Shown: positions 6,295-35,625 of the stretch, piece after piece
Layout: every line of letters begins with the position of its first letter
Numbering within the stretch: the stretch's first letter is position 1
Source: Rhodospirillaceae bacterium
GTDB taxonomy: Bacteria > Pseudomonadota > Alphaproteobacteria > GCA-2746255
NCBI GenBank assembly: GCA_002746255.1
Contig: NVWO01000007.1
Coordinates: forward strand, 2,404 to 66,403
Reading direction: 5' to 3'
DNA length: 64,000 nt
Notes under the pieces: model-generated
Database searches by the model: none
Seen by the model: only the letters and a program-made list of their open reading frames with translations
Told to the model about the DNA's origin: nothing
Program-made: the position numbers and the translations under genes

Positions 6295-7683
6295 ATGCGA
6301 GAAGCGATGAAGTCGATGTCCGGTCAAGAAACGCGGCCAAAAGCTCCACCGCCCGACGATGGGCACGATCATCGCCGCTGTATGACAGAGGCGATGACGG
6401 TGGCGGCGGACCTTTGCCAGCAGCGCGGTGTGCGTTTTACACCGCTTCGCCGTCAGATTCTTGAACTGATCTGGGACAGCCATATGCCCCTTGGGGCTTA
6501 TGCCATTCTTGACCGCCTCCAGGAGGCGGGCAAGTCCGTCCGGCCGCCGACGGTTTACCGCGCCCTCGATTTTCTGAGAGAGCAGGGGCTAATCCACCGG
6601 ATTGAATCCCGGAACGCCTATCTCGGCTGCGTCGATCCGTCGCGGCCCCACCCAAGCCAGCATTTGATTTGCGAAGATTGTGGGAAGGTTACGGAACTGG
6701 ACAATCGGGCGGTCGAAACGACTTTGGCAGCCGGGGCCAGGGCGAAAGATTTTCAACTGGTTGGTGCCACAATTGAGGTCCATGGGTTTTGCCGCGATTG
6801 CCGCCATGAGGTATCGCCGGAGGCGTTGAAAATGCCGCCGGAGGCACCACCACCACAGCCATCGCAGAACCTGTCCGGCACCGGGCAGGATTTGAAGCAG
6901 GGCCCCGTGCTGATCTCGGCAAAGGGGCTGACGCTTCGCCATGGCGGGCTTTTGGTGTTGGATCGCGTCGATCTTGCCGTCCATAAAGGCGAGATTGTGA
7001 CGATCATTGGCCCGAACGGCTCCGGCAAGACAACCCTCGTCCGGGTCCTTCTCGGTCTTATCGACCCCGAGGCGGGCAAAATCAAAAAGGCCAACGGCCT
7101 CCGCATCGGCTACGTGCCCCAGACTTTTGTGGTGGACCCGAACCTGCCCCTTACCGTCCGACGGTTTTTGGCGATGGCGGGGAGGGGGGCGGCGGATGTC
7201 CGCGAGATGCTTGCCGTCGTCGGCGCCGGGGATATCTTGACCCACCCTATTCAAAGCCTTTCCGGTGGCGAGCTTCGCCGGGTTCTGTTGGCGCGCGCCC
7301 TTCTCAGAAGGCCGAATTTGCTTGTCCTTGACGAACCGGTTCAGGGCGTCGATATGCCGGGCCAGTCGGAACTCTACCGGTTGATCGGCGATATCCGCCG
7401 CAAGCAGGGTTGTGCCGTGCTGATGATTTCCCATGATCTGCACCTGGTGATGGCGGCGACGGACGAGGTTATCTGTCTGAACCGCCACGTTTGCTGTGCC
7501 GGCCATCCAGAAGCCGTCAGCCGGCATCCGGAATATCTGGCCCTGTTTGGCGAAGTGGCCGATGAGACGCGTTTTGCCGTCTACACCCATCACCACGATC
7601 ACGTCCACGACGAGGCCGGAAATGTTTTACCGGCCTCCGATGTGCCACCTACCGGGGGGCCGACCCCCGGACCGGAGGTCTAA
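6295..7683 (+). CDS. znuC: single 462-aa ORF: Fur-family zinc uptake regulator Zur (aa 1-172) fused in frame through a Pro-rich linker to zinc ABC transporter ATPase ZnuC (aa about 200-462)
   Basis: Zur part: winged-helix segment plus CEDCGKV and CRDCRHE CxxC pairs. No stop codon follows it. Linker VSPEALKMPPEAPPPQPSQ. ZnuC part: Walker A GPNGSGKTT, signature LSGGELRRV, Walker B LLVLDEP, H-loop ISHDLH, His-rich tail. Internal ATG at about 6832 is preceded by GGAGG. Confidence 0.75.
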   Translation: MREAMKSMSGQETRPKAPPPDDGHDHRRCMTEAMTVAADLCQQRGVRFTPLRRQILELIWDSHMPLGAYAILDRLQEAGKSVRPPTVYRALDFLREQGLIHRIESRNAYLGCVDPSRPHPSQHLICEDCGKVTELDNRAVETTLAAGARAKDFQLVGATIEVHGFCRDCRHEVSPEALKMPPEAPPPQPSQNLSGTGQDLKQGPVLISAKGLTLRHGGLLVLDRVDLAVHKGEIVTIIGPNGSGKTTLVRVLLGLIDPEAGKIKKANGLRIGYVPQTFVVDPNLPLTVRRFLAMAGRGAADVREMLAVVGAGDILTHPIQSLSGGELRRVLLARALLRRPNLLVLDEPVQGVDMPGQSELYRLIGDIRRKQGCAVLMISHDLHLVMAATDEVICLNRHVCCAGHPEAVSRHPEYLALFGEVADETRFAVYTHHHDHVHDEAGNVLPASDVPPTGGPTPGPEV

Positions 7684-20441: not shown

Positions 20442-20647
20442 AGGTTTTCCTCCCTAAAGACTTTTCTTTTTGGGTCGCGCACATGGTGGCGACTGCATTC
20501 AAGTATGCCTATTTTGGTCGCCAGAGGAAACAATTTCAGGCTCCCAAATGGGAAATCCGGTCCCAGTTTACCTCTTGTCAAGTTTGCCCCTACAGGGTTA
20601 AGCCAAGTTCTTGGCTCTCGGAAGGCGTCGAAGAAGGAAAATTGGCA

Positions 20648-21511
20648 ATGGATTCTGAAAAAGAGCGCTCCATCCTGACGATTGCCTGTCCGGACCGGAC
20701 GGGGATTGTCGCCGCCGTTGCCGGCTTTCTAGCAAACCAGGACTGCTTTATTGCCGAATCGTCTCATTTTGGTGACATGAAGACCGGGAAGTTTTTCATG
20801 CGGACGGTCTATCTGCGCGGGGCGAAGACGCCTTCCCAGACGGCGCTTTTTGCGAAATTTTCCGAGATCGCCAAGCCTTTCCAGATGGATTGGGATATTT
20901 ATGACGCGCGCGCGCGCCCAAAGGTCCTCATCCTGGTTTCGCGGTTCGATCATTGCCTGAACGATCTGCTTTACCGTTACCGGACGGGGGCGCTTGGGAT
21001 GGATATCCCGGCGATCGTTTCAAACCACCCGGATCTGGCCGAGCTTGCCAACTGGCATCGCATTCCCTTTCACCATTTCCTGGTCACCGAGAAGACGAAA
21101 GGTGAGCAGGAAGCTAGAATTCTGGCCCTTATCGAGGAAAGCGGTGCCGAACTTGTTATTCTTGCGCGCTATATGCAAATTCTGACGCCGGAGTTTTGCC
21201 GGAGGTTGTCGGGGCGTATCATCAACATTCACCATTCCTTCCTGCCAGGGTTCAAAGGAGCGAAACCCTACCAGCAGGCTCACGAACGCGGCGTGAAACT
21301 GATTGGCGCAACGGCGCATTACGTCACCCCCAATCTTGACGAGGGGCCGATCATCGAGCAGGAAGTCGAGCGTGTAGACCATGCCGGCACGATCAAGGAA
21401 TTCATCCATGTTGGCCGGGACATCGAAAGCGTCGTGCTGGCACGCGCGGTGCGCTATCACCTCGAACGTCGCGTTCTCCTGCACGGAAAAAAGACAGTCG
21501 TCTTCCGGTAG
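20648..21511 (+). CDS. purU: formyltetrahydrofolate deformylase (ACT + formyltransferase domains)
   Basis: N-terminal ACT segment LTIACPDRTGIVAAVAGFL and formyl-transferase core. Start at MDSEKERS; the track ORF extends to 20483. Confidence 0.8.
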   Translation: MDSEKERSILTIACPDRTGIVAAVAGFLANQDCFIAESSHFGDMKTGKFFMRTVYLRGAKTPSQTALFAKFSEIAKPFQMDWDIYDARARPKVLILVSRFDHCLNDLLYRYRTGALGMDIPAIVSNHPDLAELANWHRIPFHHFLVTEKTKGEQEARILALIEESGAELVILARYMQILTPEFCRRLSGRIINIHHSFLPGFKGAKPYQQAHERGVKLIGATAHYVTPNLDEGPIIEQEVERVDHAGTIKEFIHVGRDIESVVLARAVRYHLERRVLLHGKKTVVFR

Positions 21512-22156: not shown

Positions 22157-23371
22157 ATGAAGACAGGTTCCATGGTCGATTTCACGCTTTCTCCGGAAAT
22201 TCGCGATTTTCAGAAACGCATCCACGCCTTTGTTGCCGATCGGATTTTGCCCCTTGAATCGGATCCGAGTGCCTATGACGACCATGAAAACATCGCACCC
22301 GAACGGCTGGAGGGCTTGCGCACGGCGGCAAAACGCGAAGGCCTCTGGGCGCTGCAAATGCCGAAATCGCGTGGCGGCCAGGGCCTTGGCGTCGTTGGCA
22401 TGGCGATCGCTTATGAGGAAATGGGGCGATCAATCTTCGGGCCCGTCGTCTTCAACGCCGCAGCGCCTGATGACGGCAATATGCTTTTGCTGAACCGCGT
22501 CGGCACGGAGGCGCAAAAGGACCGTTGGCTGCAACCGATCATCGATGGCGATGTCCGGTCCGCCTTTGCGATGACGGAACCGATGCCGGGTTCAGGCTCG
22601 GACCCGGCCGCCATGCGGACGACGGCGACGAAAACGGGAAAGGAATGGATCGTTCATGGGGAAAAATGGTTCACGACAGGGGCCATGGGGGCCAGGCATT
22701 TTATCCTTGTGGCGCGCACGTCGGACAATCCAAGACGGGGCTTGAGCGCCTTTCTCTTTGATAGTGATCAGCCGGGCTGGGAAGTGACGCGCCGCACGCC
22801 GATCATGGGGCCGGAGGAACATGGCGGCCATTGCGAACTTCGCTTTGACGGCCTTGCGATCCCGGACGCGAACCGGCTGCTTGAAATTGGTGACGGTCTG
22901 AAGGTCACGCAGATCCGCCTTGGCACGGCACGGCTGACGCACTGCATGCGCTGGCTGGGGATGGCCAAGCGGGCGCTGGAAATTGCCGGCGACTACATCT
23001 GCGAGCGCGAGAGCTTTGGAACAAAACTTGCCGACCACGAAGGCGTCCAATGGATGATGGGCGAGGCGGCGAAGGAAATCGCCGTCGGTCGGCTGCTCAC
23101 CCTGCACGCAGCCTGGAAGCTGGATCAGGGCGATTTTGCCCGCAAGGAAGTTGCGATGGCCAAGATTCAGGTGGCGGATACCCTGCACAAGGCGGTCGAT
23201 ACGGCGATGCAGCTTTGTGGGGCGCGTGGCTATTCAAAGGATATGCCGCTTGAGTGGATGTACCGCTATGCCCGACAGGCGCGTCTCGTCGATGGCGCGT
23301 CCGAGGTCCACAAGATGGTTTTGGCACGCTTTTTGTTGAAAGAAGGCGCGGATTTCTGGTCGTGGGAGTGA
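22157..23371 (+). CDS. acyl-CoA dehydrogenase family protein
   Basis: 404 aa, ACAD N/M/C domains. Confidence 0.75.
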   Translation: MKTGSMVDFTLSPEIRDFQKRIHAFVADRILPLESDPSAYDDHENIAPERLEGLRTAAKREGLWALQMPKSRGGQGLGVVGMAIAYEEMGRSIFGPVVFNAAAPDDGNMLLLNRVGTEAQKDRWLQPIIDGDVRSAFAMTEPMPGSGSDPAAMRTTATKTGKEWIVHGEKWFTTGAMGARHFILVARTSDNPRRGLSAFLFDSDQPGWEVTRRTPIMGPEEHGGHCELRFDGLAIPDANRLLEIGDGLKVTQIRLGTARLTHCMRWLGMAKRALEIAGDYICERESFGTKLADHEGVQWMMGEAAKEIAVGRLLTLHAAWKLDQGDFARKEVAMAKIQVADTLHKAVDTAMQLCGARGYSKDMPLEWMYRYARQARLVDGASEVHKMVLARFLLKEGADFWSWE

Positions 23372-24399
23372 TCGAGCCCGGTTTGCGCACCCGCCTGGAG
23401 AATTTTATCGCCGAGGCCACCAGCGCAAAATCGGTGGCCCTGCTTGCGTTGGAGCCTCTTTCCGGGGGCGCCGTTCAGGAAAACTGGCGCCTTGATGTTG
23501 AATTTGCCGACGGACCCTATCGGGGAAAACGGGCGTGGGTGCTGCGTGCCACGGCACCGGCCGGCATTCCGAACAGCCATAGCCGGGCCGAGGAATTCGC
23601 TCTGCTTGAAACGGCCCACGGGGCGGGGGTGCTGGTGCCGAAGCCGCTTTTTTTGTGCAACGAGAAAAGCGTATTCGGGCGGGATTTTTTCATCATGGAA
23701 CGCCTTTCTGGCCTTGCTGCCGGCCACCGCCTGGTTCGCGATGAAAACCTGGACGGCGAGGGGCTGTTGCGGCACCTCGGCACCGAACTTGGGCACATTC
23801 ACGGCATCCGCCCACCACCATGCCAAGCGCTTGGGTTTCTCGATCTGCCGGAAGTGTCGCCGGCCCTTGAAGCGGTCCGTCGCCTGCGGGCCCAAATTGA
23901 GGCCCATCCACAGCCGCACCCGGTTTTTGAATGGGGCTTACGCTGGCTTGAACAACACGCGCCGGAAGCTCAGGCCGTGGTTCTTTGCCACCGCGACTTC
24001 CGTACCGGCAATTACCTTGTCGAAGCGGGTAAACTTACCGGCCTGCTCGATTGGGAATTCGCCGGTTGGGGGGACCCGATGGAGGATGTGGGCTGGTTCT
24101 GCGCAAAATGTTGGCGTTTTGGGGCCAATGCCCGCGAGGCAGGCGGGATCGGCTCGCGCGAGGCTTTTTATCGGGCCTATGAAGAGGCCTCCGGCCTTTT
24201 GATTGTGCCGCCTTCCGTTCATTATTGGGAGGTCATGGCGCATTTGCGTTGGGGGGTCATCGCGGTTCAACAATGCGGCCGGCATCTGAGTGGCAAGCGT
24301 CCTTCGCTGGAACTTGCGTTGACCGGTCGGCTTGTGGCTGAAATGGAGCTTGAGATTCTTGCCCTTATCGAACGGGCGGATCGGGGAGAAGAGGCCTGA
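23368..24399 (+). CDS. phosphotransferase family protein (APH/choline-kinase-like)
   Basis: HRDFRTGNYLV catalytic loop and DWEFAGWGDP. GTG start overlaps the ACAD stop (GTGA); the track ORF extends to 23254. Confidence 0.65.
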   Translation: MIEPGLRTRLENFIAEATSAKSVALLALEPLSGGAVQENWRLDVEFADGPYRGKRAWVLRATAPAGIPNSHSRAEEFALLETAHGAGVLVPKPLFLCNEKSVFGRDFFIMERLSGLAAGHRLVRDENLDGEGLLRHLGTELGHIHGIRPPPCQALGFLDLPEVSPALEAVRRLRAQIEAHPQPHPVFEWGLRWLEQHAPEAQAVVLCHRDFRTGNYLVEAGKLTGLLDWEFAGWGDPMEDVGWFCAKCWRFGANAREAGGIGSREAFYRAYEEASGLLIVPPSVHYWEVMAHLRWGVIAVQQCGRHLSGKRPSLELALTGRLVAEMELEILALIERADRGEEA

Positions 24400-24821
24400 T
24401 GCAGGATCGCCCGACGACGTCGGAACTTCTAAAAGCGGCGCGCGACGCCTTTGTCCAAGACCTGCTGCCTGAAATTACGGGTGAGAAGCGCTATGTGGCG
24501 CTGATGGTGGCTAATGCGCTTGCGATCCTTGGCCGCGACCTTGAAAGTGATGCGGCGTTTCTTCAAAAAGAATATAAGCGTCTTCAAGGACTTCTCGATG
24601 TTTCCTTATCTGAAACCGAAGATTTAGGCGGGCTTCGGGCCAAGGTCGAAACCCTCAACCGCCAGTTGGTGGCGCAAATTCGCGCCGGCGCCTTCGACGA
24701 ACCAGAGGCGGCCTGTGCGCGCCTGCGCACGCATCTTCACGCCACCACTGCTGAGAAGCTTGCCACCAGCAATCCGAAGGCTTTGCGGAAGCAGAACGAC
24801 GTGCGTAGACCTTGGCGGTAA
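24399..24821 (+). CDS. hypothetical protein (small helical protein co-occurring with the ACAD/phosphotransferase pair)
   Basis: ATGA overlap with the upstream gene; 140 aa. Confidence 0.45.
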   Translation: MQDRPTTSELLKAARDAFVQDLLPEITGEKRYVALMVANALAILGRDLESDAAFLQKEYKRLQGLLDVSLSETEDLGGLRAKVETLNRQLVAQIRAGAFDEPEAACARLRTHLHATTAEKLATSNPKALRKQNDVRRPWR

Positions 24822-24883: not shown

Positions 24884-26032
24884 ATGTTGAACACCAATCT
24901 TCAGATTATCCTCGCTCAAAATCCGGTCGGTAAGTTCAGCGGCAAAGATTTCGAAATCCGTAAGGCAGCTGTTCCACGTCCGAAGAAGGGGCAGTTTCTT
25001 GTCCGCAACCTTTACCTTTCCCTGGATCCGGCAAACCGTCTTTGGGCGTCCCCCTTTGCCAGCTATACGCCGCCGGTTGGGCTTGGCGAGGTGATGCGCG
25101 GCTTTACGGTCAGCGAAGTCATTGAATCAAAACATCCAAAATTCAAGCCAGGCGACATCGTCCAGGGGATGGACGGTTGGCAGGAATATGCCATTTCGAA
25201 CGGGGTCAATTACAACGAGAAAGGCAAGGTCGATACCTGGAACCTGAAGGCCGTCGTCAAGGCCGGTCTGCCCATTTCGACGGGGCTTAGCGTTCTTGGC
25301 ACGACCGGGATGGCAGCCTATGTAGGGGTCATCAAAACCGGCCAGCCGAAACGCGGCGAAACGGTGCTGATCTCCGGCGCTGCGGGGGCGACGGGCTCCA
25401 TCGCTGGCCAGATCGCGAAAATCAAGGGCTGCCGTGTCGTCGGCATCGCCGGTTCCGATGCAAAATGCAAAATACTTCGCAAGGAATTCGGCTTTGACGC
25501 GACGATCAACTACAAAACCCAGAATCTGGACAAGGCCATCGCCAAGACCTGCCCGAAAGGCATCGATATCTATTTCGATAACGTTGGCGGCGATACGCTG
25601 AACATTGCGCTGACCCACATCAACGATCACGCGCGCGTTGTTATTTGTGGAGCAATTTCCCAATACACGACGTTGGAAAAAGGCATCCAGGGGCCATCAA
25701 ATTACGGCTATTTGCTGTTCAAGCGGGCGCGCATGGAAGGCTTTATCGTTCTCGATCATTACGTCAAGGATCGGGGAAAAATGGAGGCGGACTTAATCCG
25801 ATGGCTCAAGGCGGGGAAGATCCACTACCGCGACGAGGTCGTGAGCAGCCTGAAAAACGCGCCGAAGGTTATCAATCGCCTTTACGATGGGCGGAACATG
25901 GGCAAGCTTACGGTCAAGATTGGAAAAGAGCCGAAGATGCTTGGCCGTGCAACGCCGGCGCGCAAACCTTCCAAAGTAAAACGCAAAGCCAGCACGCCAA
26001 AACGTAAAGTCACCAAAGCAAAACGTCGCTAG
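24884..26032 (+). CDS. NADP-dependent oxidoreductase (MDR superfamily, YncB/CurA/LTB4-dehydrogenase-like) with a 35-aa Lys/Arg/Pro-rich C-terminal tail
   Basis: Nucleotide-binding GAAGATGS. Tail GKEPKMLGRATPARKPSKVKRKASTPKRKVTKAKRR. Confidence 0.75.
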   Translation: MLNTNLQIILAQNPVGKFSGKDFEIRKAAVPRPKKGQFLVRNLYLSLDPANRLWASPFASYTPPVGLGEVMRGFTVSEVIESKHPKFKPGDIVQGMDGWQEYAISNGVNYNEKGKVDTWNLKAVVKAGLPISTGLSVLGTTGMAAYVGVIKTGQPKRGETVLISGAAGATGSIAGQIAKIKGCRVVGIAGSDAKCKILRKEFGFDATINYKTQNLDKAIAKTCPKGIDIYFDNVGGDTLNIALTHINDHARVVICGAISQYTTLEKGIQGPSNYGYLLFKRARMEGFIVLDHYVKDRGKMEADLIRWLKAGKIHYRDEVVSSLKNAPKVINRLYDGRNMGKLTVKIGKEPKMLGRATPARKPSKVKRKASTPKRKVTKAKRR

Positions 26033-26061
26033 GCGGCGGTCTTTTTTTCTTTTTGTATTTC

Positions 26062-26089
26062 GGCCGGGGAGGAATGCCTCCCCGGCCGG
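26062..26089 (+). terminator. hairpin GGCCGGGGAGG-AATG-CCTCCCCGGCC (11-bp perfect stem) after the oxidoreductase gene; the downstream U-tract is only moderate
   Basis: Seen in sequence. Confidence 0.45.
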
Positions 26090-26133: not shown

Positions 26134-27834
26134 CTAGAAAACGGGGGTTTCGCGATAGGTTCCCCAAAGCTCCCGCAAGGTTTCCACGATATCGCCCATG
26201 GAAGCACCAGCTTTCACAAGCTTAACTGTGATCGGCATGATGTTTTTGTCCGGGTCCTTGGCGACTTCGACGAGCTCTTTCAACAGGCTCTGAACCTTGT
26301 TCTCGTCGCGTTCGTCCCGCACTTTTTTCAAGCCTGCGATCTGCCGGTCCGTGGTGGTGTGATCGTGGGGATGCAGTTCCACGTCGAAGACTTCGTCTTT
26401 CTCGACGAATTTGTTTACCCCGATCAGCGGGTACTCGCCGCTTGCCTTTTTCATCGCCGTCTCGTAAGCGAAGTCGGCGATGTGGCGCTGGAACCAGCCT
26501 TCTTCGATCAGCTTGATCGTGCCGCCCTTTTCATCAATCTCGTCGAGAATCTTGAAGATTTCCTTCTCGTACTCGGTCGTCAGGTGTTCGACGAAATACG
26601 AACCGCCCAGTGGATCGATGACCTGGGTAACGTTCGTTTCTTCGGCAATGACTTGCTGGGTGCGAAGGGCGATCTTCATCGCTGCTTCCGTCGGGATGGC
26701 AAAGGCTTCGTCCATGCCGTTCGTGTGCAGGCTCTGCGCGCCGCCAAGGACGGCGGAAAGGGCCTGAACGGTCGTGCGCATGATGTTGACCTTGTATTGG
26801 GGCTTGGTCAACGTCGCTGCGGCCGTCTGGCAATGGAAACGAAGCCGCATGGATGCCGGATTTTTAGCACCAAAGCGTTCTTTCATGATCTTTGCATAGA
26901 CCCGACGTGCTGCCCGGAACTTTGCGATTTCCTCGAAGAAATCACGCTGGCATACAAAGAAGAAGGCGAGCCGGGGTGCGAATACGTCAACATCCAGGCC
27001 GGTTTTTATAACTTCTTCCACATAGGTAATCGTGTTCGCCATCGTGAACGCAACTTCATGTACCGGAGACGAACCAGCTTCCGAAACGTGGTAGCCGGAA
27101 ATATTGATCGGATTGAAGCGCTTCATGTTCTCGGCGCAGAAGGTGATGCAGTCGCGGACGATGCGGACAGAAGGTGTGATCGGATAGATCCATTCCTTCT
27201 GTGCCATATATTCTTTCAGAATATCCGCCTGAACCGTTCCGGAAAGCTTGTGTGGGTCGTATCCCCGCTTTTGCCCAAGGGCGTAATACATGGCCAGCAT
27301 GATCCACGCCGAAGGATTGATGGTCATGGAGACGGAGATGTTTTCAAGGTCGATGTCGGCGTAAAGCGCCTCCATATCGGCCAGGGTATCGACGGCAACG
27401 CCTTCACGACCGACTTCACCGATGCTCATCGGGTGGTCTGAGTCATATCCCATAAGGGTTGGCATATCGAAATCGGTAGAGATACCGGTCTGGCCCTGCT
27501 CGATCAGGTATTTGAACCGCTTGTTCGTGTCCTCGCCGGTGCCGAAACCTGCAATCTGGCGCATGGTCCAGTTGCGGCCACGGTACATGGTCGGATAGGG
27601 GCCACGGGTGAAGGGATATTGGCCAGGCAGGCCAATGTCCTCAAGCGGCGTTTCTGCCACGTCGAGTGCTGTATAGACGCGTTTTACCGGGAAGTTGCCG
27701 AAGGTGGTGAATTGTTCCTTCTGCTCCGGTTGACGGTTGAGGAAGGTGGCGAGTTCTTTCTTCTCCCATTTCTCAAATTGCTGTTCAAGCCGTTCGAGAG
27801 CCATGTTGTCCAGGGCCTGCTTTTCGTTAATCAT
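26134..27834 (-). CDS. hcmA: B12-dependent acyl-CoA mutase large (substrate-binding TIM-barrel) subunit, HcmA-like (candidate 2-hydroxyisobutyryl-CoA mutase)
   Basis: MCM-family motifs [10 protein letters not shown] and [14 protein letters not shown]. Specificity positions: Ile94 (MCM Tyr89 / ICM Phe80 site), Asp121 (HcmA Asp117 site), Gln212 (MCM Arg207 site). No B12-binding domain in this ORF. Confidence 0.7.
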
Positions 27835-27837
27835 TTC

Positions 27838-28857
27838 CTATTTCTCCATCCGGATTTCGGCCAGAAGGTCTTGTGCCGCTGCATATGGATTGGTTTCGTG
27901 AGCCATCATCTGTTCGATTAGTGTCGAGACTTTCCCATCCCGGTGTTCCTGAAATTTGTCACGCAGGATTTCCTCGGCCGTTTTTAGCATCCGCCGTTCG
28001 GCGATGCGCTTTTTTTGTTTGTCGAGCTCTCCGGACGTTCCGAGGTACTCCCAGTGCTGGTCGATTGCCTTAAGGAGTTCCGAAACACCCTCAAGCTTCA
28101 GGGCGCTTGTCGCGATGACCGGGACCGGCCAGTTGGTCGCGCCGGAAAGGCTTAGACCAAGGGTCATCATTCCTTTTAGATCGGTGATTGTCCGGTTTGC
28201 ATCCGGGCGGTCACATTTGCTGACGACGTGGATGTCGGCAATTTCTAGAATGCCGGCTTTGATCGCCTGAATGTCGTCGCCAAGGCCGGGGGCGGAAACG
28301 ACGATTGTCGTGTGGGCCGCTTGGACGATGTCCACCTCATCCTGACCGACCCCCACCGTTTCGATCAGGATCATATCGAAGCCGGCGGCGTCCAGAACGT
28401 CCACGGCATCCAGGCTGGCACGTGCCAGGCCGCCAAGCGAACCTCGCGTTGCCATGCTGCGAATAAAAATTCCCTTATCCCCGGCAAGTTCGTTCATGCG
28501 GATACGGTCACCCAGAATGGCCCCGCCGGAAAACGGGCTGGAAGGGTCAATCGCGACGACGGCAACCTTACGGCCTGTTTCGCGGATCATGGCGATCAGC
28601 TTGCCCATCAGGGTGGATTTGCCGCTGCCGGGCACGCCGGTGATGCCGACGATATGCGCGCGACCCGTGCGTTTGTAAATTTCGGCAAGGGCCGGGCGGC
28701 ATTCGTTTTTTCCGGCTTCGGCACGCGTGATCATCCGCGCGATGGCGCCAATATCGGCAGCAACGACACGGTCAATCAGGTCAAGAGAAGGAATATTTCT
28801 CACGGCGTCAGGCTCCGTCATTTTTTTTAAGCATGTCCTGGAAGACGGCACGGTCAT
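27838..28857 (-). CDS. MeaB/ArgK-family G-protein chaperone for B12 mutases (MeaH-like)
   Basis: P-loop GVPGSGKST; GDRIRM and SKCDRPD switch motifs. Start may be the internal Met at about 28821. Confidence 0.8.
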   Translation of the reverse strand: MTVPSSRTCLKKMTEPDAVRNIPSLDLIDRVVAADIGAIARMITRAEAGKNECRPALAEIYKRTGRAHIVGITGVPGSGKSTLMGKLIAMIRETGRKVAVVAIDPSSPFSGGAILGDRIRMNELAGDKGIFIRSMATRGSLGGLARASLDAVDVLDAAGFDMILIETVGVGQDEVDIVQAAHTTIVVSAPGLGDDIQAIKAGILEIADIHVVSKCDRPDANRTITDLKGMMTLGLSLSGATNWPVPVIATSALKLEGVSELLKAIDQHWEYLGTSGELDKQKKRIAERRMLKTAEEILRDKFQEHRDGKVSTLIEQMMAHETNPYAAAQDLLAEIRMEK

Positions 28858-30241
28858 CGATGACGCGGCGTGCCTTGAAGTCTGTCCGGGGAATGGAGTT
28901 CAGCGGTACGATCTCAACCTTTGTACGGACACCAAGCACCCGTTGCAGGTCCTTGCTGATCGTGCTTTGGAATGCGTTCAGGGCGTCGTCACCTTTCGTG
29001 TAGGTTTCCTTCACGGCCTCCACGCGGACCAGCAATTCGTCCATGGTTCCTTCGCGCGTGATGATGATGCGATGTTCCCCGCCATAGCCGTCGACTTTGT
29101 TCAGGACGGCGTCGATTTCACTTGGGTAGATGTTTTCACCACGGACCGTGAATTGATCGTCGATACGCCCAAAAATTCCGTTTGGAAGGTGTGGATAGGT
29201 ACGGCCGCAAGGGGCGGGGCCGTCATAGCGCCACTCGGTCAGGTCGCCGGAGAGCAGGCGGATCATCGGTTGTGAGGTGCGTTCGAGATGGGTGTAGACG
29301 GGCGTTCCCTTCTGACCATAGGGCACACGCCGAAAATTTGATGGGTCGCAGACTTCTGTGTAGACGATGTCCTGCCACAACAGCATGCCTTCCGGCGTTC
29401 CCTGTGAACCGGCGCAGTTCATCCAGGGCGCCATCTCGGCCATGGAACCGGAATCGTAAACTTCGGCGTTATAAAACTCCTTGATCCGGTCACGCACACC
29501 CGGGATCGATGCGCCAGGTTCGCCCGAGAAGAACAGGCATTTGAGGCCGAAATCTTTCGGCTCCAAGCCTTCCTTGATGGCGGTCTCGGCCAAATGAATG
29601 GCAAAGGACGGGGTGCCATAGAAGGCAGCGGGCTTCATCTGGCTGAGCCATTGTGCGGCGCGTGCGCTCATACCCGGGGCACCGGCGCCAAAAGGGAAGG
29701 CCTTGGCGTGCAGGCGTTCTGCACCGGCCAGCGCACCCCAGGAACCCAGGTAGAGGCTGAAAATTGCGGCGACGAAGATCATATCGCCCGGGCGCATGCC
29801 CATGCCGTACATGATGCGCGCATGGGCGTTGGCAATGGCGTCCCAGTCGTTGCGGCCGATGGCAAAAACGGTGGGCGTTCCGGTGGTTCCGGACGTGCCG
29901 TGGATGTGATGAATTTCCGATTCAGGAATGCAGAGATAATCGCCGAACCTCGGTACATTGGTCTGGGCCGCGCGCAAATCCTTCTTCGTGATGACCGGGA
30001 CCTTGTCCTCAAAATCCTCAAGGGACTTCAGGTGGTCCGGATGAAAGCCAGCTTTGTCCCATATCCGTTTGTAGAAGGGGGATTTTTCATAGGCATAACG
30101 CGTGACTTCCTGCAGGCGCCCGAGAATAGCTTTTTCCCGATCCCCCGGGTCCATCGTCTCCCGCTTTGTAAACCAGTAGGGAGAAGAGGGTTCCGGCAGG
30201 TAATTGGGGTCAAATTTTGGTGGAAACGACCAATTTTCCAT
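28808..30241 (-). CDS. PaaK-like (phenylacetate-CoA ligase family) AMP-forming acyl-CoA ligase, candidate 2-hydroxyisobutyrate-CoA ligase
   Basis: 477 aa; HGTSGTTGTPT adenylation motif; PaaK-family architecture; embedded in the mutase operon. Confidence 0.65.
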   Translation of the reverse strand: MENWSFPPKFDPNYLPEPSSPYWFTKRETMDPGDREKAILGRLQEVTRYAYEKSPFYKRIWDKAGFHPDHLKSLEDFEDKVPVITKKDLRAAQTNVPRFGDYLCIPESEIHHIHGTSGTTGTPTVFAIGRNDWDAIANAHARIMYGMGMRPGDMIFVAAIFSLYLGSWGALAGAERLHAKAFPFGAGAPGMSARAAQWLSQMKPAAFYGTPSFAIHLAETAIKEGLEPKDFGLKCLFFSGEPGASIPGVRDRIKEFYNAEVYDSGSMAEMAPWMNCAGSQGTPEGMLLWQDIVYTEVCDPSNFRRVPYGQKGTPVYTHLERTSQPMIRLLSGDLTEWRYDGPAPCGRTYPHLPNGIFGRIDDQFTVRGENIYPSEIDAVLNKVDGYGGEHRIIITREGTMDELLVRVEAVKETYTKGDDALNAFQSTISKDLQRVLGVRTKVEIVPLNSIPRTDFKARRVIDDRAVFQDMLKKNDGA

Positions 30242-30273: not shown

Positions 30274-30690
30274 TTAGCGTGCGCCGCGTTCGGCAACAAG
30301 GCGTCGCATCGTTTCAATTATTTCTTGCGGGGGTGTGTCCTGCAGCAGAATCTGTTTCACGCCAATTTTATGCAGCTCTTCGACTTCGTCGTCTGGAATG
30401 ACGCCGCCGCCGGTGACGATGATGTCTTCGGCGTTGCTTTCTTTCAGCAGTTCGATGATGCGTGGAAACACCGTCATATGCGCGCCCGAAAGAATGCTGA
30501 CGCCAAGGATGTCCACGTCTTCCTGAACGGCGGCGCGAACAACGTCCTCCGGCGTACGGTGAAGGCCTGTATAGATGACATCCATTCCGGCATCGCGAAG
30601 GGCACGTGCCACGACTTTGACGCCGCGGTCGTGACCGTCCAGCCCGACTTTCGCGATCAGCACGCGAATGATGTCTGAATTCTTACTCAT
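30274..30690 (-). CDS. hcmB: acyl-CoA mutase small B12-binding subunit (HcmB-like)
   Basis: 138 aa; DxHxxG cobalamin-binding motif in LDGHDRGVKVV. Confidence 0.8.
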   Translation of the reverse strand: MSKNSDIIRVLIAKVGLDGHDRGVKVVARALRDAGMDVIYTGLHRTPEDVVRAAVQEDVDILGVSILSGAHMTVFPRIIELLKESNAEDIIVTGGGVIPDDEVEELHKIGVKQILLQDTPPQEIIETMRRLVAERGAR

Positions 30691-30702
30691 AATAACGACT
30701 CC

Positions 30703-31425
30703 CTAATTTCCTAATGTGTTTTTTATCTCAAGGTCGACCACCTTGTCGATAGGGGCGGCCTTGGCATGGGTCTGTTTGTTCAACTCGCGTTGTAGAGACG
30801 TGGAGGCAGCTTCGGCGTGCTCGCCGGCGAGGGTCTCGGCTTTTTCCGCATCACCTTCGGCGATGGCGTCAAGAATGGCGTCATGCTCCATCCAGACGTT
30901 TTTACTATAGCCATCGATACGCAGCACGACACTCATGATGCGCCGGAAGTGGTTCAAATAGGGCTGCATCGTATCGGCAAGGATGGCATTGCCGGAAAGT
31001 TCGTAGATCAACCGGTGGAAGTCCATGTCCGTTGCGATCAATTTTGAAATTGATGCGTTCGCGGCCGTCTTTTGGTCCAGGGCCGCGGTGCGTTTTGCAC
31101 GCGCAATGTCGCGCGACGCGGCGTTTGTAGCGGCCTGTCTTGCGGCAAGTCGGTCGAGGGCGCCGCGAAATTCGTAAAGGGAACGGACAAAACCTTCTTC
31201 AAGCGGCGCAACCATCAACCCGCGTCGGCCAGCTTTGCAGACAAATCCCTGGCTTTTCAAAAGCATCAGCGCCTGGCCAACCGGTTGCCGGGAGACGTTG
31301 AGCTGCTCGGCAATGCCTTCCTGAGCAAGCCGCTCACCGGGGGCTAGCTGGCCATCGCAGATGGCATCCAGGATGGTGTTGTAGACCTGCTCCATCATGT
31401 GGGGCTGAACGTGGAGTTTACGCAA
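30703..31425 (-). CDS. GntR-family transcriptional regulator (FadR/FCD subfamily)
   Basis: N-terminal winged HTH ...ERLAQEGIAEQLNVSRQPVGQAL plus C-terminal FCD-type domain. Confidence 0.75.
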   Translation of the reverse strand: MRKLHVQPHMMEQVYNTILDAICDGQLAPGERLAQEGIAEQLNVSRQPVGQALMLLKSQGFVCKAGRRGLMVAPLEEGFVRSLYEFRGALDRLAARQAATNAASRDIARAKRTAALDQKTAANASISKLIATDMDFHRLIYELSGNAILADTMQPYLNHFRRIMSVVLRIDGYSKNVWMEHDAILDAIAEGDAEKAETLAGEHAEAASTSLQRELNKQTHAKAAPIDKVVDLEIKNTLGN

Positions 31426-31517
31426 GTGGCCGCTCCCGATTATTGCATACAGTGTTCAGTAATTTGAATTTTTCAGCGACACAAGAACTATTATTAAAAG
31501 TGTTGCCTTTCAGTGCA

Positions 31518-33257
31518 TTAGCTATTTTTTTTAGGGGGGTTCCGCCAGTCGCGTTCGGCGTTGTCCCACGCTTCCAGCGGTTGCAAATCCGGCACCAGGG
31601 CAAGGCCGGCCTTGGCATCGCCCGAGACCGCCTCGCGGGTGACCCGCACGTCAAGGACGGCGGGTGCGTTTTCGAGGCAGCGCGCGAAGGCTTCGCCAAT
31701 ATCTTCCTCGCGCTCGACATGCTCGCCATGGGCGCCAAGCGCACGCGCAAGACCGGCATAATCGGAAAAGCGAAGTTCCGTGCCGACGATATTGCCGTCA
31801 TAGGTTTCGCGCTGGTCAAAGCATTCAATGTTCCATGCACCATTGTTGGCGATGACGAAAACAACCTTGGCGTCGTGGCGAACGGCGGTATCGACCTCGA
31901 TTGCATTGAAGCCAAAGGCGCCGTCGCCGGTGACAACAATGACCTGGCGGTCGGGAAGGGCGAGGGCGGCGGCGATTCCAAAAGGAACGCCCACGCCCAG
32001 GCAGCCAAGCGCGCCGGGGTCCATATAGGGGCCTGCGGAAAGGGCGACGCGGGCGAAACTCAGGATATCGCCGCCATCGGCGATGGTGACGGCATCGGGT
32101 GCGATCCGTTCCTGCAACACACTCAACAGGCGATTGGGATGGATATGGCCGTCGCTTCCGGGGGGCGTCTTCCTAAGTTTTTTAATAAATTTTTCTCTTT
32201 TTTTCGCGTGGGTTGCGCGTATTTCCTGAACCCACTTCTTATCTACGGCGGGCTTGCGATTGCCGGCTGCCGCGACGATGGCTTTCAGGGCCAGCGCCGG
32301 CGTGGCGACGATTTCTGGGCAGCCGCGCCGATTGTCGCGAAGTTCCTCTGCATGTTCGGCAAGGCGGACGAAGCGGGCGTTTTTGAAAATAGCTGGCGAG
32401 CCATAAGCAAGCTGAAAATCGAGCTTGCGGCCGATGGTCAGGACGACATCGGCTTCTTCCATCACCTGGCCGCGCAGCGAGGAAACGACGGCGGGGTGGC
32501 TGTCTGGAACAAGCCCCCGGCTTTCAGACGTGTCGAGGTAAAGGGCGTCCAGCGCATCAAGCATCGCGCGAAGTTCGGGCCCGGCACCGCGTGCGCCACG
32601 CCCGGTAATCACCAGCGGTCGTTTGGCATTCCACAGAATTTCGACCGCCGCGGCGATGGTTTTTGGGTCGGGCTGCAATTGCACCTTGGCCCGTGGTGCC
32701 AAATGTTCGGCAAAAACCTGGTGCCGGGGCAGGCGTGCGCGCAGGAGATCCGTCGGAAAATCAATGTAGGCCGGGCCTGGTACATTGCCTTCGCCGCTGG
32801 CGCGCGCAAAGGCCTCGTCAAGGGCGGGCACGACATGGGCCGCTTCGCGCACGGTCCGGGTGTAGCGGGTGATGGAGCGAAGCAAATCCGTGTGCACAAG
32901 ATCCTGCAATGCCCCCATCTGTTCCTGGGGGCATGGCGGCACGCCGGAGATGACGACGATCGGGGCCCGGGCGACATCGGCGTTGACGATGCCGGTGATC
33001 GCGTTCGTGACGCCGGGTCCGGCGGTGGCAAGCACAACTGCGATGTTGCCTGTCAGTTCGGCATGGGCATGGGCCATGTGGGCGGCGGCACGTTCGTCAC
33101 GGACGTCAATGATGCGAATGCCGGCGCGGGCGACCCGGTCCCAGATGGGCATGATATGGCCGCCGCAAAGCCCGAAAACACGGTCGATGCCGCGTGCGGT
33201 AAGGAATTCGGCAATAAGGCCGGCGATCGTTTCCGATGTCTCTGCATTCTGAGCCAT
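31518..33257 (-). CDS. thiamine diphosphate-dependent enzyme of the 2-hydroxyacyl-CoA lyase / oxalyl-CoA decarboxylase family
   Basis: GLVPDSHP and GDGAFGFNAIEVDT...NNGAW resemble the Oxc/HACL GLLPDNHP and GDSAFGFSGMELET...NNGGIY more than acetolactate synthase. Start taken at MAQNAETSE; the track ORF, with an alternative start, extends to 33323. Confidence 0.65.
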   Translation of the reverse strand: MAQNAETSETIAGLIAEFLTARGIDRVFGLCGGHIMPIWDRVARAGIRIIDVRDERAAAHMAHAHAELTGNIAVVLATAGPGVTNAITGIVNADVARAPIVVISGVPPCPQEQMGALQDLVHTDLLRSITRYTRTVREAAHVVPALDEAFARASGEGNVPGPAYIDFPTDLLRARLPRHQVFAEHLAPRAKVQLQPDPKTIAAAVEILWNAKRPLVITGRGARGAGPELRAMLDALDALYLDTSESRGLVPDSHPAVVSSLRGQVMEEADVVLTIGRKLDFQLAYGSPAIFKNARFVRLAEHAEELRDNRRGCPEIVATPALALKAIVAAAGNRKPAVDKKWVQEIRATHAKKREKFIKKLRKTPPGSDGHIHPNRLLSVLQERIAPDAVTIADGGDILSFARVALSAGPYMDPGALGCLGVGVPFGIAAALALPDRQVIVVTGDGAFGFNAIEVDTAVRHDAKVVFVIANNGAWNIECFDQRETYDGNIVGTELRFSDYAGLARALGAHGEHVEREEDIGEAFARCLENAPAVLDVRVTREAVSGDAKAGLALVPDLQPLEAWDNAERDWRNPPKKNS

Positions 33258-33508
33258 TGTGCGATATCTCCACCTGTAGACAAGCAGTAACTGCTTGAAA
33301 TAAAAGTATAATATTTCACGCACTTTGCATGTCGTATGCAGTCTTTGGAGTGTACGCGTTTGCTTGGCGCATCACAATGTCTGTATGCCGCTCTTGCGAT
33401 CCACCATCTGTAAAATCCCCTGCCAGACGCCCACAAAGGGATGCTAATATCGATCCCATTGTGGGCGTTGGCCTGTCCGAAATCTGTCCTGTTGAAGAGG
33501 TGTTTTCC

Positions 33509-34015
33509 TTGCGTTGCATAGTAAGAACTTCATTTATTCTATTGATTTTTATGCTTCTTTTTTCTGCTAACGCCAGAGCTGACTTTGAAGGCGGCCTTGT
33601 GGCTTATCAGGAGAATGATTTCAAAAAGGCGCTTGAAGAATTCACACCCTTGGCCAAGAACGGCCACGCGATGGCTCAGTTTTACCTCGGCCTTCTTTAT
33701 GGTTTTGGCGAGGGGGTCGAAAAGGATCTGGTTACGGCGGTGCGCTGGTGGCGGCTGGCGGCCGAGCAGGGCAACACCGCCGCCCAGTCCAATCTTGGCT
33801 TCATGTACAAATATGGCAACGGTGTGTCCCCGGATCCGGTGCAGGCCTATATGTGGTCAAAAGTGGCGTCCATGGGCGGCGCGGCGTTTGCCGATGAGAA
33901 TCTTATCACCTTCGCCGAGGGCATGACTTCGGATGCGATCGCGCGTGCCGAACGGCTTGCCATGGACTGGCTGGATGCTCATCCTGCCGCCGCCGGGTCC
34001 AGGGAAACCCCTTAG
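33509..34015 (+). CDS. Sel1-repeat (TPR-like) exported protein
   Basis: Signal peptide RTSFILLIFMLLFSANARA with AT-rich codons; Sel1 repeats AQFYLGLLYGFGEGVEKD, AQSNLGFMYKYGNGV. Start is approximate (TTG or GTG). Confidence 0.6.
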   Translation: MRCIVRTSFILLIFMLLFSANARADFEGGLVAYQENDFKKALEEFTPLAKNGHAMAQFYLGLLYGFGEGVEKDLVTAVRWWRLAAEQGNTAAQSNLGFMYKYGNGVSPDPVQAYMWSKVASMGGAAFADENLITFAEGMTSDAIARAERLAMDWLDAHPAAAGSRETP

Positions 34016-34133
34016 GCGTTTCTGCGCGAAGGTTCATGGCGTTCGCCACCAAAACCCTGAAATGATCGATTTCATTGAGGCGCGCATGTTTTAGGCCATT
34101 GACGCGATCAAATATTTATATAACATATTTCTT

Positions 34134-34505
34134 ATGGAAAGAATTGGTTATATAAGCGCAGAATCAAGTCTCGACGCCATTTTTTCGGCGCTGGCCGACC
34201 CGACGCGGCGGGCAATCCTGTTACGGCTTGTGAAAGGTCAGGCTTCCGTCAATGAGATCGCCGCGCCATTTGAAATAAGTCAACCGGCGGTTTCAAGGCA
34301 TCTGAAGGTGCTGGAACAGGCGGGGTTGATCGAGCGAGATGTTGACGAACAGCGCCGCCCGGCGAGGCTGAAAGCTGAAACGATGGCAACCGCTGTCGAC
34401 TGGCTTGCCGAATTTAGAGCTTTTTGGGGGATGTCTTTTGATCAATTAGACGACGTCTTGATGCAGATGAAACTAGCCAAAGCGAAGGAAACAGACCATG
34501 AGTGA
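34134..34505 (+). CDS. ArsR/SmtB-family transcriptional regulator
   Basis: LADPTRRAILLRL...NEIAAPFEISQPAVSRHLKVLEQAGLI. Confidence 0.8.
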   Translation: MERIGYISAESSLDAIFSALADPTRRAILLRLVKGQASVNEIAAPFEISQPAVSRHLKVLEQAGLIERDVDEQRRPARLKAETMATAVDWLAEFRAFWGMSFDQLDDVLMQMKLAKAKETDHE

Positions 34506-34999
34506 ATTACCCGAATACGTACTTGACCGGGTGTTTGATGCGCCCCGCGAAGTGGTCTGGCGCGCCTGGACGGATCCTGAATGGCTCTCGCGTTGGTATG
34601 GCCCCGGCGCAGAAACGATCATCCATAAATTTGATTTAAAACCCGGTGGCATATGGCTTAACGAAATGAAGTGGGGGGGACAATTCTAACTTTCAGAAAG
34701 TCGTTTTTCAGGACGTTTTGCAACCCTCAAGGCTGGTTTGGCACCATTATTCTTTGACAGATTCGGATTGGACTGTTGTTGTGAATCCAAGAATGCCGGA
34801 TTAGCCCCGGTTGCTGCTGACAACGGTGACTTTTGAGGACATGGGCGACAAAACAAATGTGTGCCTCTCTCAGGTGCCGATTGAGGCCACAGACGCCGAG
34901 ATCGCCTGTTTCACCAAGATGATGGCTGGCATGGATCAGGGTTGGGGCAGCGGTTACGCAATCATGGATACGCTGTTCGCAGAGTTGCGGGCAGGATAA
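34498..34999 (+). pseudogene. disrupted SRPBCC (Aha1/BPI-like) domain gene, the usual partner of ArsR
   Basis: N-terminal fragment (34498-34689) and C-terminal fragment (34811-34999) are both SRPBCC-like. The middle part is recoverable in another frame (NSNFQKVVFQDVLQPSRLVWHHYSLTDSDWTVVVNPRMPD) after a poly-G run at about 34672-34680, and carries an in-frame TAG at about 34800. Confidence 0.6.
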
Positions 35000-35337
35000 G
35001 GCAGCACCTTGGGGGCAGGAGCATGTCCCTGCAAAAAGAGGCTTTGGCGGGGGACGGCCGGCCGAAGCCGGCACCGGAACTTTATGGGTAACCACCGACC
35101 GGCTTGTGTCCCGATGCCTAGCATCAATTATGCCCGTATTTTCTAAAAACGCGGCGTCCCAAAATAGCGCCACGGCATTGGCTGGCGGCTTTCCTGGTAC
35201 CCAGCCGTCTCTTGCGGGCTTTCTGGGGCAAGGCCATATTCTGCGTACCATTTTTGATAGTACAGCGTCTTTGGCATCCCGATCTAGGGATGGCCAGCGC
35301 CACGAAGTTACATGATTTTAAAAAAATGTCTGAAAAG

Positions 35338-35413
35338 TGGCTCCCCGAGTCGGACTCGAACCAACGACACAGCGGTTAACAGCCGCTTGCTCTACCAACT
35401 GAGCTACCGGGGA
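35338..35413 (-). tRNA. tRNA-Asn (anticodon GUU)
   Basis: Reverse complement folds as a cloverleaf: acceptor UCCCCGG/UCGGGGA, anticodon loop CUGUUAA, T-arm GUUGGUUCGAGUCCGAC, encoded CCA. Confidence 0.85.
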
Positions 35414-35551: not shown

Positions 35552-35625
35552 TGGAGGCGCGGGCCGGATTCGAACCGGCGTACACAGATTTGCAGTCTGC
35601 TGGATAACCACTCTCCCACCGCGCC
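35552..35625 (-). tRNA. tRNA-Cys (anticodon GCA)
   Basis: Reverse complement GGCGCGGUGGGAGAGUGGUUAUCCAGCAGACUGCAAAUCUGU...GGUUCGAAUCCGGCCCGCGCCUCCA. Confidence 0.85.

Follow-up and report, generated by a model that had tools for sequence, protein, structure and literature searches.

In a 64,000-nt stretch of contig NVWO01000007.1 from a Rhodospirillaceae bacterium (the window), we analysed a locus in which a thiamine diphosphate (ThDP)-dependent enzyme related to AcHACL, the 2-hydroxyacyl-CoA lyase of Actinomycetospora chiangmaiensis, is encoded next to the mutase and ligase genes for 2-hydroxyisobutyryl-CoA (2-HIB-CoA). According to the open reading frame (ORF) list and the translations, the minus strand carries six genes in head-to-tail order between positions 26134 and 33257, all in one direction, with gaps of 92, 12, 32, 4 and 3 nt along the run from the lyase gene to hcmA. 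These are the lyase, GntR regulator and mutase/ligase set that the initial annotation of this sequence had placed on one strand. The genes and a hairpin beyond hcmA are:

31518–33257, minus strand: AcHACL-type 2-hydroxyacyl-CoA lyase, ThDP-dependent, 579 aa (NF058623, 7PT1, Pfam, pocket residues)
30703–31425, minus strand: GntR-family regulator with FCD effector domain, 240 aa, TTG start (Pfam GntR and FCD)
30274–30690, minus strand: hcmB, small B12-binding mutase subunit, 138 aa (TIGR00640, 156 bits; Pfam B12-binding)
28808–30241, minus strand: hcl, 2-hydroxyisobutyrate-CoA ligase of the PaaK-like type, 477 aa (6HDW, 782 bits)
27838–28803, minus strand: meaB/meaH-like G-protein chaperone (TIGR00750, 337 bits; Pfam MeaB)
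26134–27834, minus strand: hcmA, large subunit of 2-hydroxyisobutyryl-CoA mutase, 566 aa (4R3U, 983 bits)
26060–26089, no strand assigned: GC-rich hairpin with a 13-bp stem between the convergent hcmA and reductase genes (terminator-like scan)

Identity of the lyase, the mutase and the ligase

The initial annotation had described a 579-aa ThDP enzyme with GLVPDSHP and GDGAFGFNAIEVDT...NNGAWN and had judged it closer to 2-hydroxyacyl-CoA lyases than to acetolactate synthase (ALS); the ORF and the motifs were found, and the model scores agree with that judgement. The ORF runs from 33257 to 31518, begins with an ATG preceded by a GGTGGAG ribosome-binding site, and encodes the Pfam domains TPP_enzyme_N, TPP_enzyme_M and TPP_enzyme_C. 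GLVPDSHP lies at residue 248, and GDGAFGFNAIEVDT at 444 and NNGAWN at 471 form the ThDP/Mg-binding motif GDG...NN (residues 444–476). The protein scored 858 bits against NCBIfam NF058623 ('2-hydroxyacyl-CoA lyase'), for which the curated equivalog cutoff is 600, and 629 bits against the Actinomycetospora lyase in PDB 7PT1 over residues 5–569 of 579, compared with ~207 bits for other HACL- or oxalyl-CoA decarboxylase (Oxc)-type chains. The second-best model, NF004516 (ALS), fails its cutoff of 587 with 348 bits, as does TIGR00118 (ALS) with 237.5 bits (cutoff 538). Both Oxc models failed as well (NF006721, 235 bits, cutoff 557; TIGR03254, 203 bits, cutoff 739). Overall, all ALS, Oxc, pyruvate oxidase and sulfoacetaldehyde acetyltransferase models stayed at or below 348 bits, each under its own cutoff.

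The active site of AcHACL comprises H44, T88, L127, Q128, I492 and E493 (Zahn et al., PMC8760513); E493 is catalytic and located on the active-site helix, H44 and T88 are water ligands, L127 and I492 limit substrate size, and a C-terminal lid (residues 556–590) restricts substrates to C4–C5 (PMC8760513). In the alignment, H34, T78, L117, Q118, I477 and E478 of the window lyase occupy the six positions, which are nearly invariant across ~97 family members. The lid segment aligns gap-free to that of AcHACL, with D561 conserved and K564 replaced by Ala. Oxc enzymes have a conserved Glu at the Q128-equivalent position, and OfOXC has a Tyr near the E493-equivalent position (PMC8760513), whereas the window enzyme has Gln118 and Glu478 at these discriminating positions in addition to the AcHACL-specific lid.

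The names in public databases point elsewhere. The identical protein, from a Rhodospirillaceae bacterium metagenome-assembled genome, is recorded as 'acetolactate synthase', relatives are also called 'thiamine pyrophosphate-binding protein', and the three-domain ThDP fold is common to all of these enzymes. With the model scores, Gln118, Glu478 and the lid all contradicting it, and with neither an ALS small-subunit gene nor oxalate genes among the neighbouring ORFs scanned, the public annotation as Oxc or ALS is refuted at sequence level and we give it practically no credence. By family, as far as sequence comparison can assign it, the ThDP enzyme is an AcHACL-type 2-hydroxyacyl-CoA lyase and neither an Oxc nor an ALS.

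HcmA scored 983 bits to 4R3U, the HcmA of Aquincola tertiaricarbonis, vs 438 bits to human methylmalonyl-CoA mutase, and its segments RQIAGF (I94) and STDFD (D121) are identical to those of 4R3U. These segments carry the Ile and Asp of the Ile90/Asp117 pair, the substrate signature that defines Hcm. The HcmB translation contains DGHDRG, a DxHxxG motif, and Hcl scored 782 bits to PDB 6HDW (2-hydroxyisobutyryl-CoA synthetase) vs 221 bits to PaaK. Judged by these matches, the HcmAB-type mutase set of the window is genuine, with large and small subunit, MeaB-type chaperone and hcl. HcmA and Hcl thus match the crystallised Aquincola proteins, in keeping with the earlier proposal of a 2-HIB-CoA-cleaving kind of lyase beside an hcm set. 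Because the lyase, HcmA and Hcl all match their families, the locus encodes a 2-HIB-CoA-forming ligase together with both known types of consuming enzyme.

A GntR gene adjoining the hcm operon is the usual arrangement (PMC7176365) and matches the hcm loci sampled here; the N-terminal codons of gntR show synonymous changes and are conserved across relatives. For the meaB-like gene, a GTG start at 28803 was chosen from the L086 gene call and the sequence, the alternative being an ATG at 28821 that overlaps hcl. The hairpin at 26060–26089 is probably the end of the operon; it was scored on the plus strand, and we infer its use on the minus strand.

Recurrence of the gene pair and operator-like palindromes

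Eight relatives (L001–L008; lyases 77–94% identical) all have the order lyase-gntR-hcmB-hcl-meaB-hcmA in the same chromosomal neighbourhood. In one of them (L003, 15390–18800), two tandem 566-aa MM_CoA_mutase genes follow meaB, where the window has a single hcmA. In Proteobacteria this lyase family has many members (thousands of matches at 60–65% identity), and the 2-hydroxyacyl-CoA lyase equivalog is passed by the window protein and its many proteobacterial relatives, even though public records name them 'acetolactate synthase' or 'thiamine pyrophosphate-binding protein'. Because proteobacterial relatives pass it, the 'actinobacterial' lyase is widespread in Alpha- and Betaproteobacteria.

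In 61 of 77 further genome loci, an ANL-type acyl-CoA ligase adjoins the lyase, and many have a GntR gene. The hcm genes adjoin it in six (L020, L028, L059, L075, L076 and L085), five of which carry hcmB-hcl-meaB-hcmA in full, with hcmA alone visible on the short contig L028; the usual order among the six is hcmB-hcl-meaB-hcmA-lyase. Conversely, a lyase accompanies 14 of 80 metagenomic hcm operons that were retrieved by an Hcl profile built around the Aquincola enzyme, the 80-locus samples being best matches to the queries and not random draws. The fraction is 11 of 35 for operons whose flank past hcmA measures at least 2 kb, and 7 of 25 where both sides are informative, so that roughly a quarter of the sampled hcm operons carry a lyase, including that of Methylibium petroleiphilum PM1, which degrades MTBE.

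The linkage occurs in at least four gene orders besides that of the window, among them a lyase divergent from hcmB (L106), lyase-hcl-meaB-hcmA (loci L108 and L137) and a lyase ~4 kb upstream of hcmB (L020). In a neighbour-joining (NJ) tree rooted on AcHACL and drawn without support values, the window clade forms a separate deep branch, and the other hcm-linked lyases fall in two or three places among the ligase-linked ones. A tblastn search of plasmids recovered an NF058623 lyase (MPE_RS22155, 742 bits) within the hcm operon of PM1, as well as the gene of Mycolicibacterium ELW1. The metagenomic hcm operon L087 (9584–16778) encodes an Hcl with 94% identity to that of A. tertiaricarbonis, and an NF058623 lyase (751 bits) follows its hcmA after ~950 nt. 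The lyase may therefore also occur in near relatives of the strain in which the mutase pathway is best studied.

No paper on the PM1 ThDP gene came up in a literature search by PM1 locus tags. The lyase and mutase combination of ELW1 was already remarked on in a 2026 paper (PMC13188929), and Rohwerder et al. 2020 described lyase-hcl clusters as lacking mutase genes and discussed a lyase-plus-mutase combination for sulfate reducers only (PMC7176365). Because of the survey loci, PM1, ELW1 and this one prior remark, we regard the combination as recurrent rather than rare, contrary to the initial annotation, which had called it unusual.

The ANL-type lyase loci (e.g. L053, 8388–9977; L168, 7375–10698; L169, 1641–9460) usually consist of lyase, ANL ligase and GntR genes, and some add a pyrroloquinoline quinone alcohol dehydrogenase, an aldehyde dehydrogenase and an AEC transporter. 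They look like an analogue of the actinobacterial mpdBC-hcl-lyase cluster. Pocket residues were tried as a separator of hcm-linked from ANL-ligase-linked lyases and rejected, as the residues are identical.

The prevalence of this second type raises the question of whether the window lyase has another small 2-hydroxyacyl-CoA as its substrate, made by a ligase or transferase whose gene lies elsewhere, with the hcm adjacency reflecting shared neighbourhood ancestry. Most proteobacterial members are indeed partnered with an ANL-type ligase of unknown specificity without hcm, the identical pocket residues mean that context and not sequence defines the substrate, and a 92-nt spacer sets the window lyase, with an upstream region of its own, apart from gntR. 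We nevertheless consider this explanation doubtful, because the hcm linkage is found in at least five gene orders and on more than one NJ branch, because PM1-type operons embed the lyase among hcm genes, and because the sole characterised and only enzymatically assayed family member, AcHACL, uses 2-HIB-CoA made by Hcl (PMC7176365, PMC8760513). No CoA ligase of the lyase-partner type (ANL homologue) was found in the 64-kb window besides Hcl. A further argument comes from the non-coding regions of the locus, whose features are:

31426–31517, minus strand: lyase-gntR spacer, 92 nt (39% G+C vs 57% for the window)
31455–31468, no strand assigned: TTCA-N6-TGAA inverted repeat, present, overlapping the left edge of palindrome 2
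33327–33339, no strand assigned: operator-like palindrome 1, GCATAC-G-ACATGC on the coding strand, centre ~76 nt upstream of the lyase ATG
31445–31457, no strand assigned: operator-like palindrome 2, GAACAC-T-GTATGC on the coding strand, 20–32 nt upstream of the gntR start

The initial annotation had pointed to an AT-rich gap with a TTCA-N6-TGAA repeat. The gap, its composition and the repeat are as described, but the repeat is within chance, with 3 matches in the window vs 1.18 expected and 10 of 100 shuffles reaching 3. In aligned orthologous non-coding regions it is restricted to the window and its 94%-identical relative L006, and it was rejected as a GntR site for want of enrichment and of conservation beyond this closest relative. 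The conserved element is instead the adjacent 13-bp palindrome, which also occurs upstream of the lyase. No intrinsic-terminator-like site was seen in a scan of the minus strand of the spacer, which also has no Rfam match, and no cobalamin or TPP riboswitch matched in Rfam at gathering thresholds window-wide or at E<=1 around the lyase.

From the alignment of orthologous non-coding regions, the clade consensus of the palindrome is GCATAC/GTATAC-N-GTATGC/GTATAC. Near-perfect counterparts of palindrome 1 lie 71–82 nt upstream of the lyase start in L001, L003, L005, L006 and L007, and counterparts of palindrome 2 lie at the same offset, 30–32 nt upstream of the gntR start, in L001, L003, L005 and L007. 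In the latter four loci, these two sites are the only matches with <=2 mismatches in ~21 kb, compared with 0.35–0.7 matches per locus after shuffling; in L006 (6.4 kb) the lyase-proximal palindrome alone reaches <=2 mismatches.

In most betaproteobacterial hcm operons examined, a GTATAC-type element lies 55–120 nt upstream of hcmB, often as 7-bp-period repeats. By contrast, none was found near the lyase in the 77 other lyase loci (9 matches in 1.2 Mb, none lyase-proximal), most of which have an ANL-type ligase in place of hcm genes. Because the palindrome stands upstream of hcmB elsewhere and is near-absent from other lyase loci, it looks like the hcm-associated GntR operator, of which the window clade appears to have placed a second copy before the lyase. 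This apparent duplication likewise speaks against a separate substrate for the lyase. From it we predict one regulon, with the lyase and the gntR-hcm genes under the same GntR/FCD protein, and the GTATAC-type palindrome and this protein, predicted to be probably responsive to 2-hydroxyisobutyric acid (2-HIBA), make a candidate operator-regulator pair. In PM1, the gntR-hcmB intergenic region (L167, 3397–3515) contains the 7-bp-period repeat GCATGTC GCATGTC GCATGTC GCATACG, which occupies the position of GTATAC-N-GTATAC in other hcm operons and is probably a diverged form of the operator.

A putative branch point in 2-hydroxyisobutyrate catabolism

We favour, with reasonable though by no means full confidence, a single 2-HIBA catabolic locus with a branch point, in which one CoA ester has two outlets. 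Hcl would convert 2-HIBA to 2-HIB-CoA, which HcmAB, with the MeaB-like chaperone and adenosylcobalamin, would isomerise to (S)-3-hydroxybutyryl-CoA, and the lyase would cleave the same ester to acetone and formyl-CoA. The lyase would probably also cleave the C5 homologue 2-hydroxy-2-methylbutyryl-CoA; AcHACL accepts this ester equally (PMC7176365). The GntR/FCD protein is predicted to bind the palindromes before the lyase and before gntR-hcmB-hcl-meaH-hcmA, so that both outlets would be switched together. Because the lyase is paired with a CoA ligase family-wide (with hcl in Actinobacteria; PMC7176365), and because the window contains no other such ligase than Hcl, we infer the shared substrate and the catabolic direction.

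Several points weigh against this reading. Since the pocket residues are the same in lyases partnered with a different, ANL-type ligase, the sequence cannot prove 2-HIB-CoA as the substrate. The two palindrome copies of the window are each 2 mismatches from the clade consensus, and because ~2.5 such copies are expected by chance per 64 kb, these sites rest on their positional conservation in relatives. Promoter-like (sigma-70) matches are no commoner than chance, and both promoter and terminator scan counts, being at chance level, are used descriptively. Among the window ORFs scanned there are no genes to process acetone, formyl-CoA or formate, such as acetone carboxylase or monooxygenase, formyl-CoA transferase and formate dehydrogenase. 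Moreover, ELW1, which has both enzymes, needs cobalt for growth on intermediates before 3-hydroxybutyrate (PMC13188929); the lyase alone therefore does not sustain growth there, which argues against a full bypass. A PurU-like formyltransferase gene at 20483–21511, ~10 kb from the lyase gene, was considered and set aside because it looks housekeeping.

Because of the missing acetone and formate genes in the scanned ORFs and the cobalt need of ELW1, the branch point is best pictured with unequal outlets. Most plausibly, the lyase would be a B12-independent relief or secondary route that frees CoA when the mutase is limiting and handles homologues, and it is probably not a stand-alone growth pathway.

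The reaction direction could also be the reverse. As a synthase, the lyase would join acetone or butanone with formyl-CoA to a 2-hydroxyacyl-CoA that HcmAB converts to 3-hydroxybutyryl-CoA, an ATP-sparing ketone assimilation like the one proposed for sulfate reducers (PMC7888143). The reaction of AcHACL can run both ways (PMC8760513), and on acetone Desulfococcus biacutus and Desulfosarcina cetonica induce a B12 mutase together with a ThDP enzyme, 2-HIB-CoA having been detected as an intermediate (PMC7888143; PMC7176365); the lyase and mutase genes are also co-located and probably co-regulated. Even so, hcl, encoding a ligase for the free acid, is kept in every hcm-lyase locus examined, whereas the acetone pathway of sulfate reducers operates without Hcl and with a different ThDP enzyme (PMC7176365). 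The family-wide CoA ligase partner is a signature of acid catabolism, and a formyl-CoA source (e.g. formyl-CoA transferase) was found neither in the window nor recurrently in related loci. For these reasons we think a synthase role at this locus unlikely, and we are a shade more sceptical of the general form of the idea, that in aerobic Proteobacteria with both genes the AcHACL-type enzyme is a synthase whose tertiary 2-hydroxyacyl-CoA is passed on by HcmAB. If true, it would provide an ATP-free, carboxylase-independent route of acetone and butanone assimilation and a concrete enzyme type for the 'acetone formylation' that has so far resisted in-vitro demonstration in sulfate reducers.

A gene for a double-LbH protein (gamma-carbonic-anhydrase/PaaY/CaiE-like) after the PM1 lyase was tried as a formyl-CoA thioesterase partner and rejected. 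It follows hcmA in 15 sampled lyase-less hcm operons and is absent from all 71 hcm-less lyase loci; it thus tracks hcmA rather than the lyase and carries no information on lyase direction. The protein has ~340 aa with two hexapeptide domains (e.g. L167, 10734–11756; locus L108, 4917–5990), is encoded after hcmA in many hcm operons of Betaproteobacteria, whether or not a lyase is there (22 of 80 sampled hcm loci), and is absent from the window.

As to what follows from this analysis, the misannotation of proteobacterial lyases is the firmest point. Next comes the puzzle of why carbon-wasting cleavage is encoded beside carbon-conserving isomerisation, for which B12 economy, CoA relief, C5 homologues and reverse flux are candidate reasons. 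Third, this lyase family is attractive for C1 extension with formyl-CoA, and the survey adds many natural variants encoded beside a 2-HIB-CoA mutase.

Flanking genes and comparison with known systems

Convergent to hcmA, the window encodes a CurA-like NADPH enone reductase (24884–26032, plus strand; 356 bits, under the cutoff of 440) with a lysine/arginine-rich C-terminal tail (...ARKPSKVKRKASTPKRKVTKAKRR) that is unusual for the enone reductase family. Beside the hcm cluster, a trio of acyl-CoA dehydrogenase, APH-family phosphotransferase and DUF6285 genes (22157–24821, plus strand) is conserved in the whole clade, including the downstream flanks of L001, L003 and L005. The same trio, with SDR and histidine phosphatase genes, stands beside the lyase-GntR module on an Azoarcus KH32C plasmid (L169, 9529–13586). 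It is similar to the LvaA/B/C-type (ACAD10/11-like) system, in which 4-hydroxyacyl-CoA undergoes phosphorylation and elimination. On the other side, positions 33599–35251 contain ArsR and AHSA1-like genes, whereas relatives have immediately before the lyase a DUF3750 gene that the window lacks, which indicates that the upstream flank of the lyase was remodelled; two tRNA genes follow at 35341–35413 and 35555–35625 (minus strand), ~2 kb upstream of the lyase. Farther away, a single 462-aa ORF (6295–7683, plus strand) combines a FUR-family domain (44–162) with an ABC ATPase domain (222–349) and has ZnuA- and ZnuB-like genes as neighbours. It is a fused Zur-ZnuC protein unless the ORF listing has run two genes together.

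Among the known systems, AcHACL of A. chiangmaiensis DSM 45062 (PDB 7PT1–7PT4) belongs to the same NF058623 family and is ~54% identical to the window lyase, with pocket residues, GLVPDSHP, ThDP motif and C-terminal lid in common, although S, G, K and A respectively replace its CoA-contact residues Q255, S274, R362 and K564 in the window lyase. The catalytic efficiency of AcHACL (kcat/Km) is ~11 s-1 mM-1. In both loci the lyase is encoded together with hcl. A. chiangmaiensis has mpdBC in the cluster, no mutase there and no hcm anywhere in the genome, whereas the alphaproteobacterial window has gntR and hcmB between lyase and hcl and a complete hcmAB-meaH set.

PM1 (plasmid NC_008826) and A. 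tertiaricarbonis strain L108 share with the window the order hcmB-hcl-meaB-hcmA, an adjacent GntR gene and a GTATAC-type repeat upstream of hcmB, and PM1 also has an NF058623 lyase in the same operon. However, in PM1 hcmA comes before the lyase, with a hypothetical gene and one for an adenosyltransferase in between, and the lyase is followed by the double-LbH protein, a second adenosyltransferase and 3-hydroxybutyryl-CoA dehydrogenase, with gntR divergent. In the window the lyase comes first, gntR is co-directional, and none of these accessory genes is present.

The ibc cluster 2 of ELW1 (pELW1-1; PMC13188929) likewise brings together the mutase/ligase set, an FCD regulator and a ThDP lyase. 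It differs in being actinobacterial and plasmid-borne and in the position of the lyase, which is separated from the upstream hcmA by ~4.5 kb that include ilvC and a dehydrogenase gene. This lyase shares only 48% identity with that of the window, and genes for cobalamin biosynthesis and alkene monooxygenase surround the cluster.

D. biacutus and D. cetonica, compared by published description, are the most distant case. Their ThDP enzyme has 685 aa and is 22% identical to AcHACL (PMC7176365), their mutase is Rcm-like, Hcl is missing, and the anaerobic pathway proceeds towards synthesis (PMC7888143), whereas the window has a 579-aa AcHACL-type enzyme, an Hcm-type mutase and Hcl. Set against these systems, the window is a new alphaproteobacterial case of a known lyase-plus-mutase arrangement, with its own gene order and an apparently duplicated operator.

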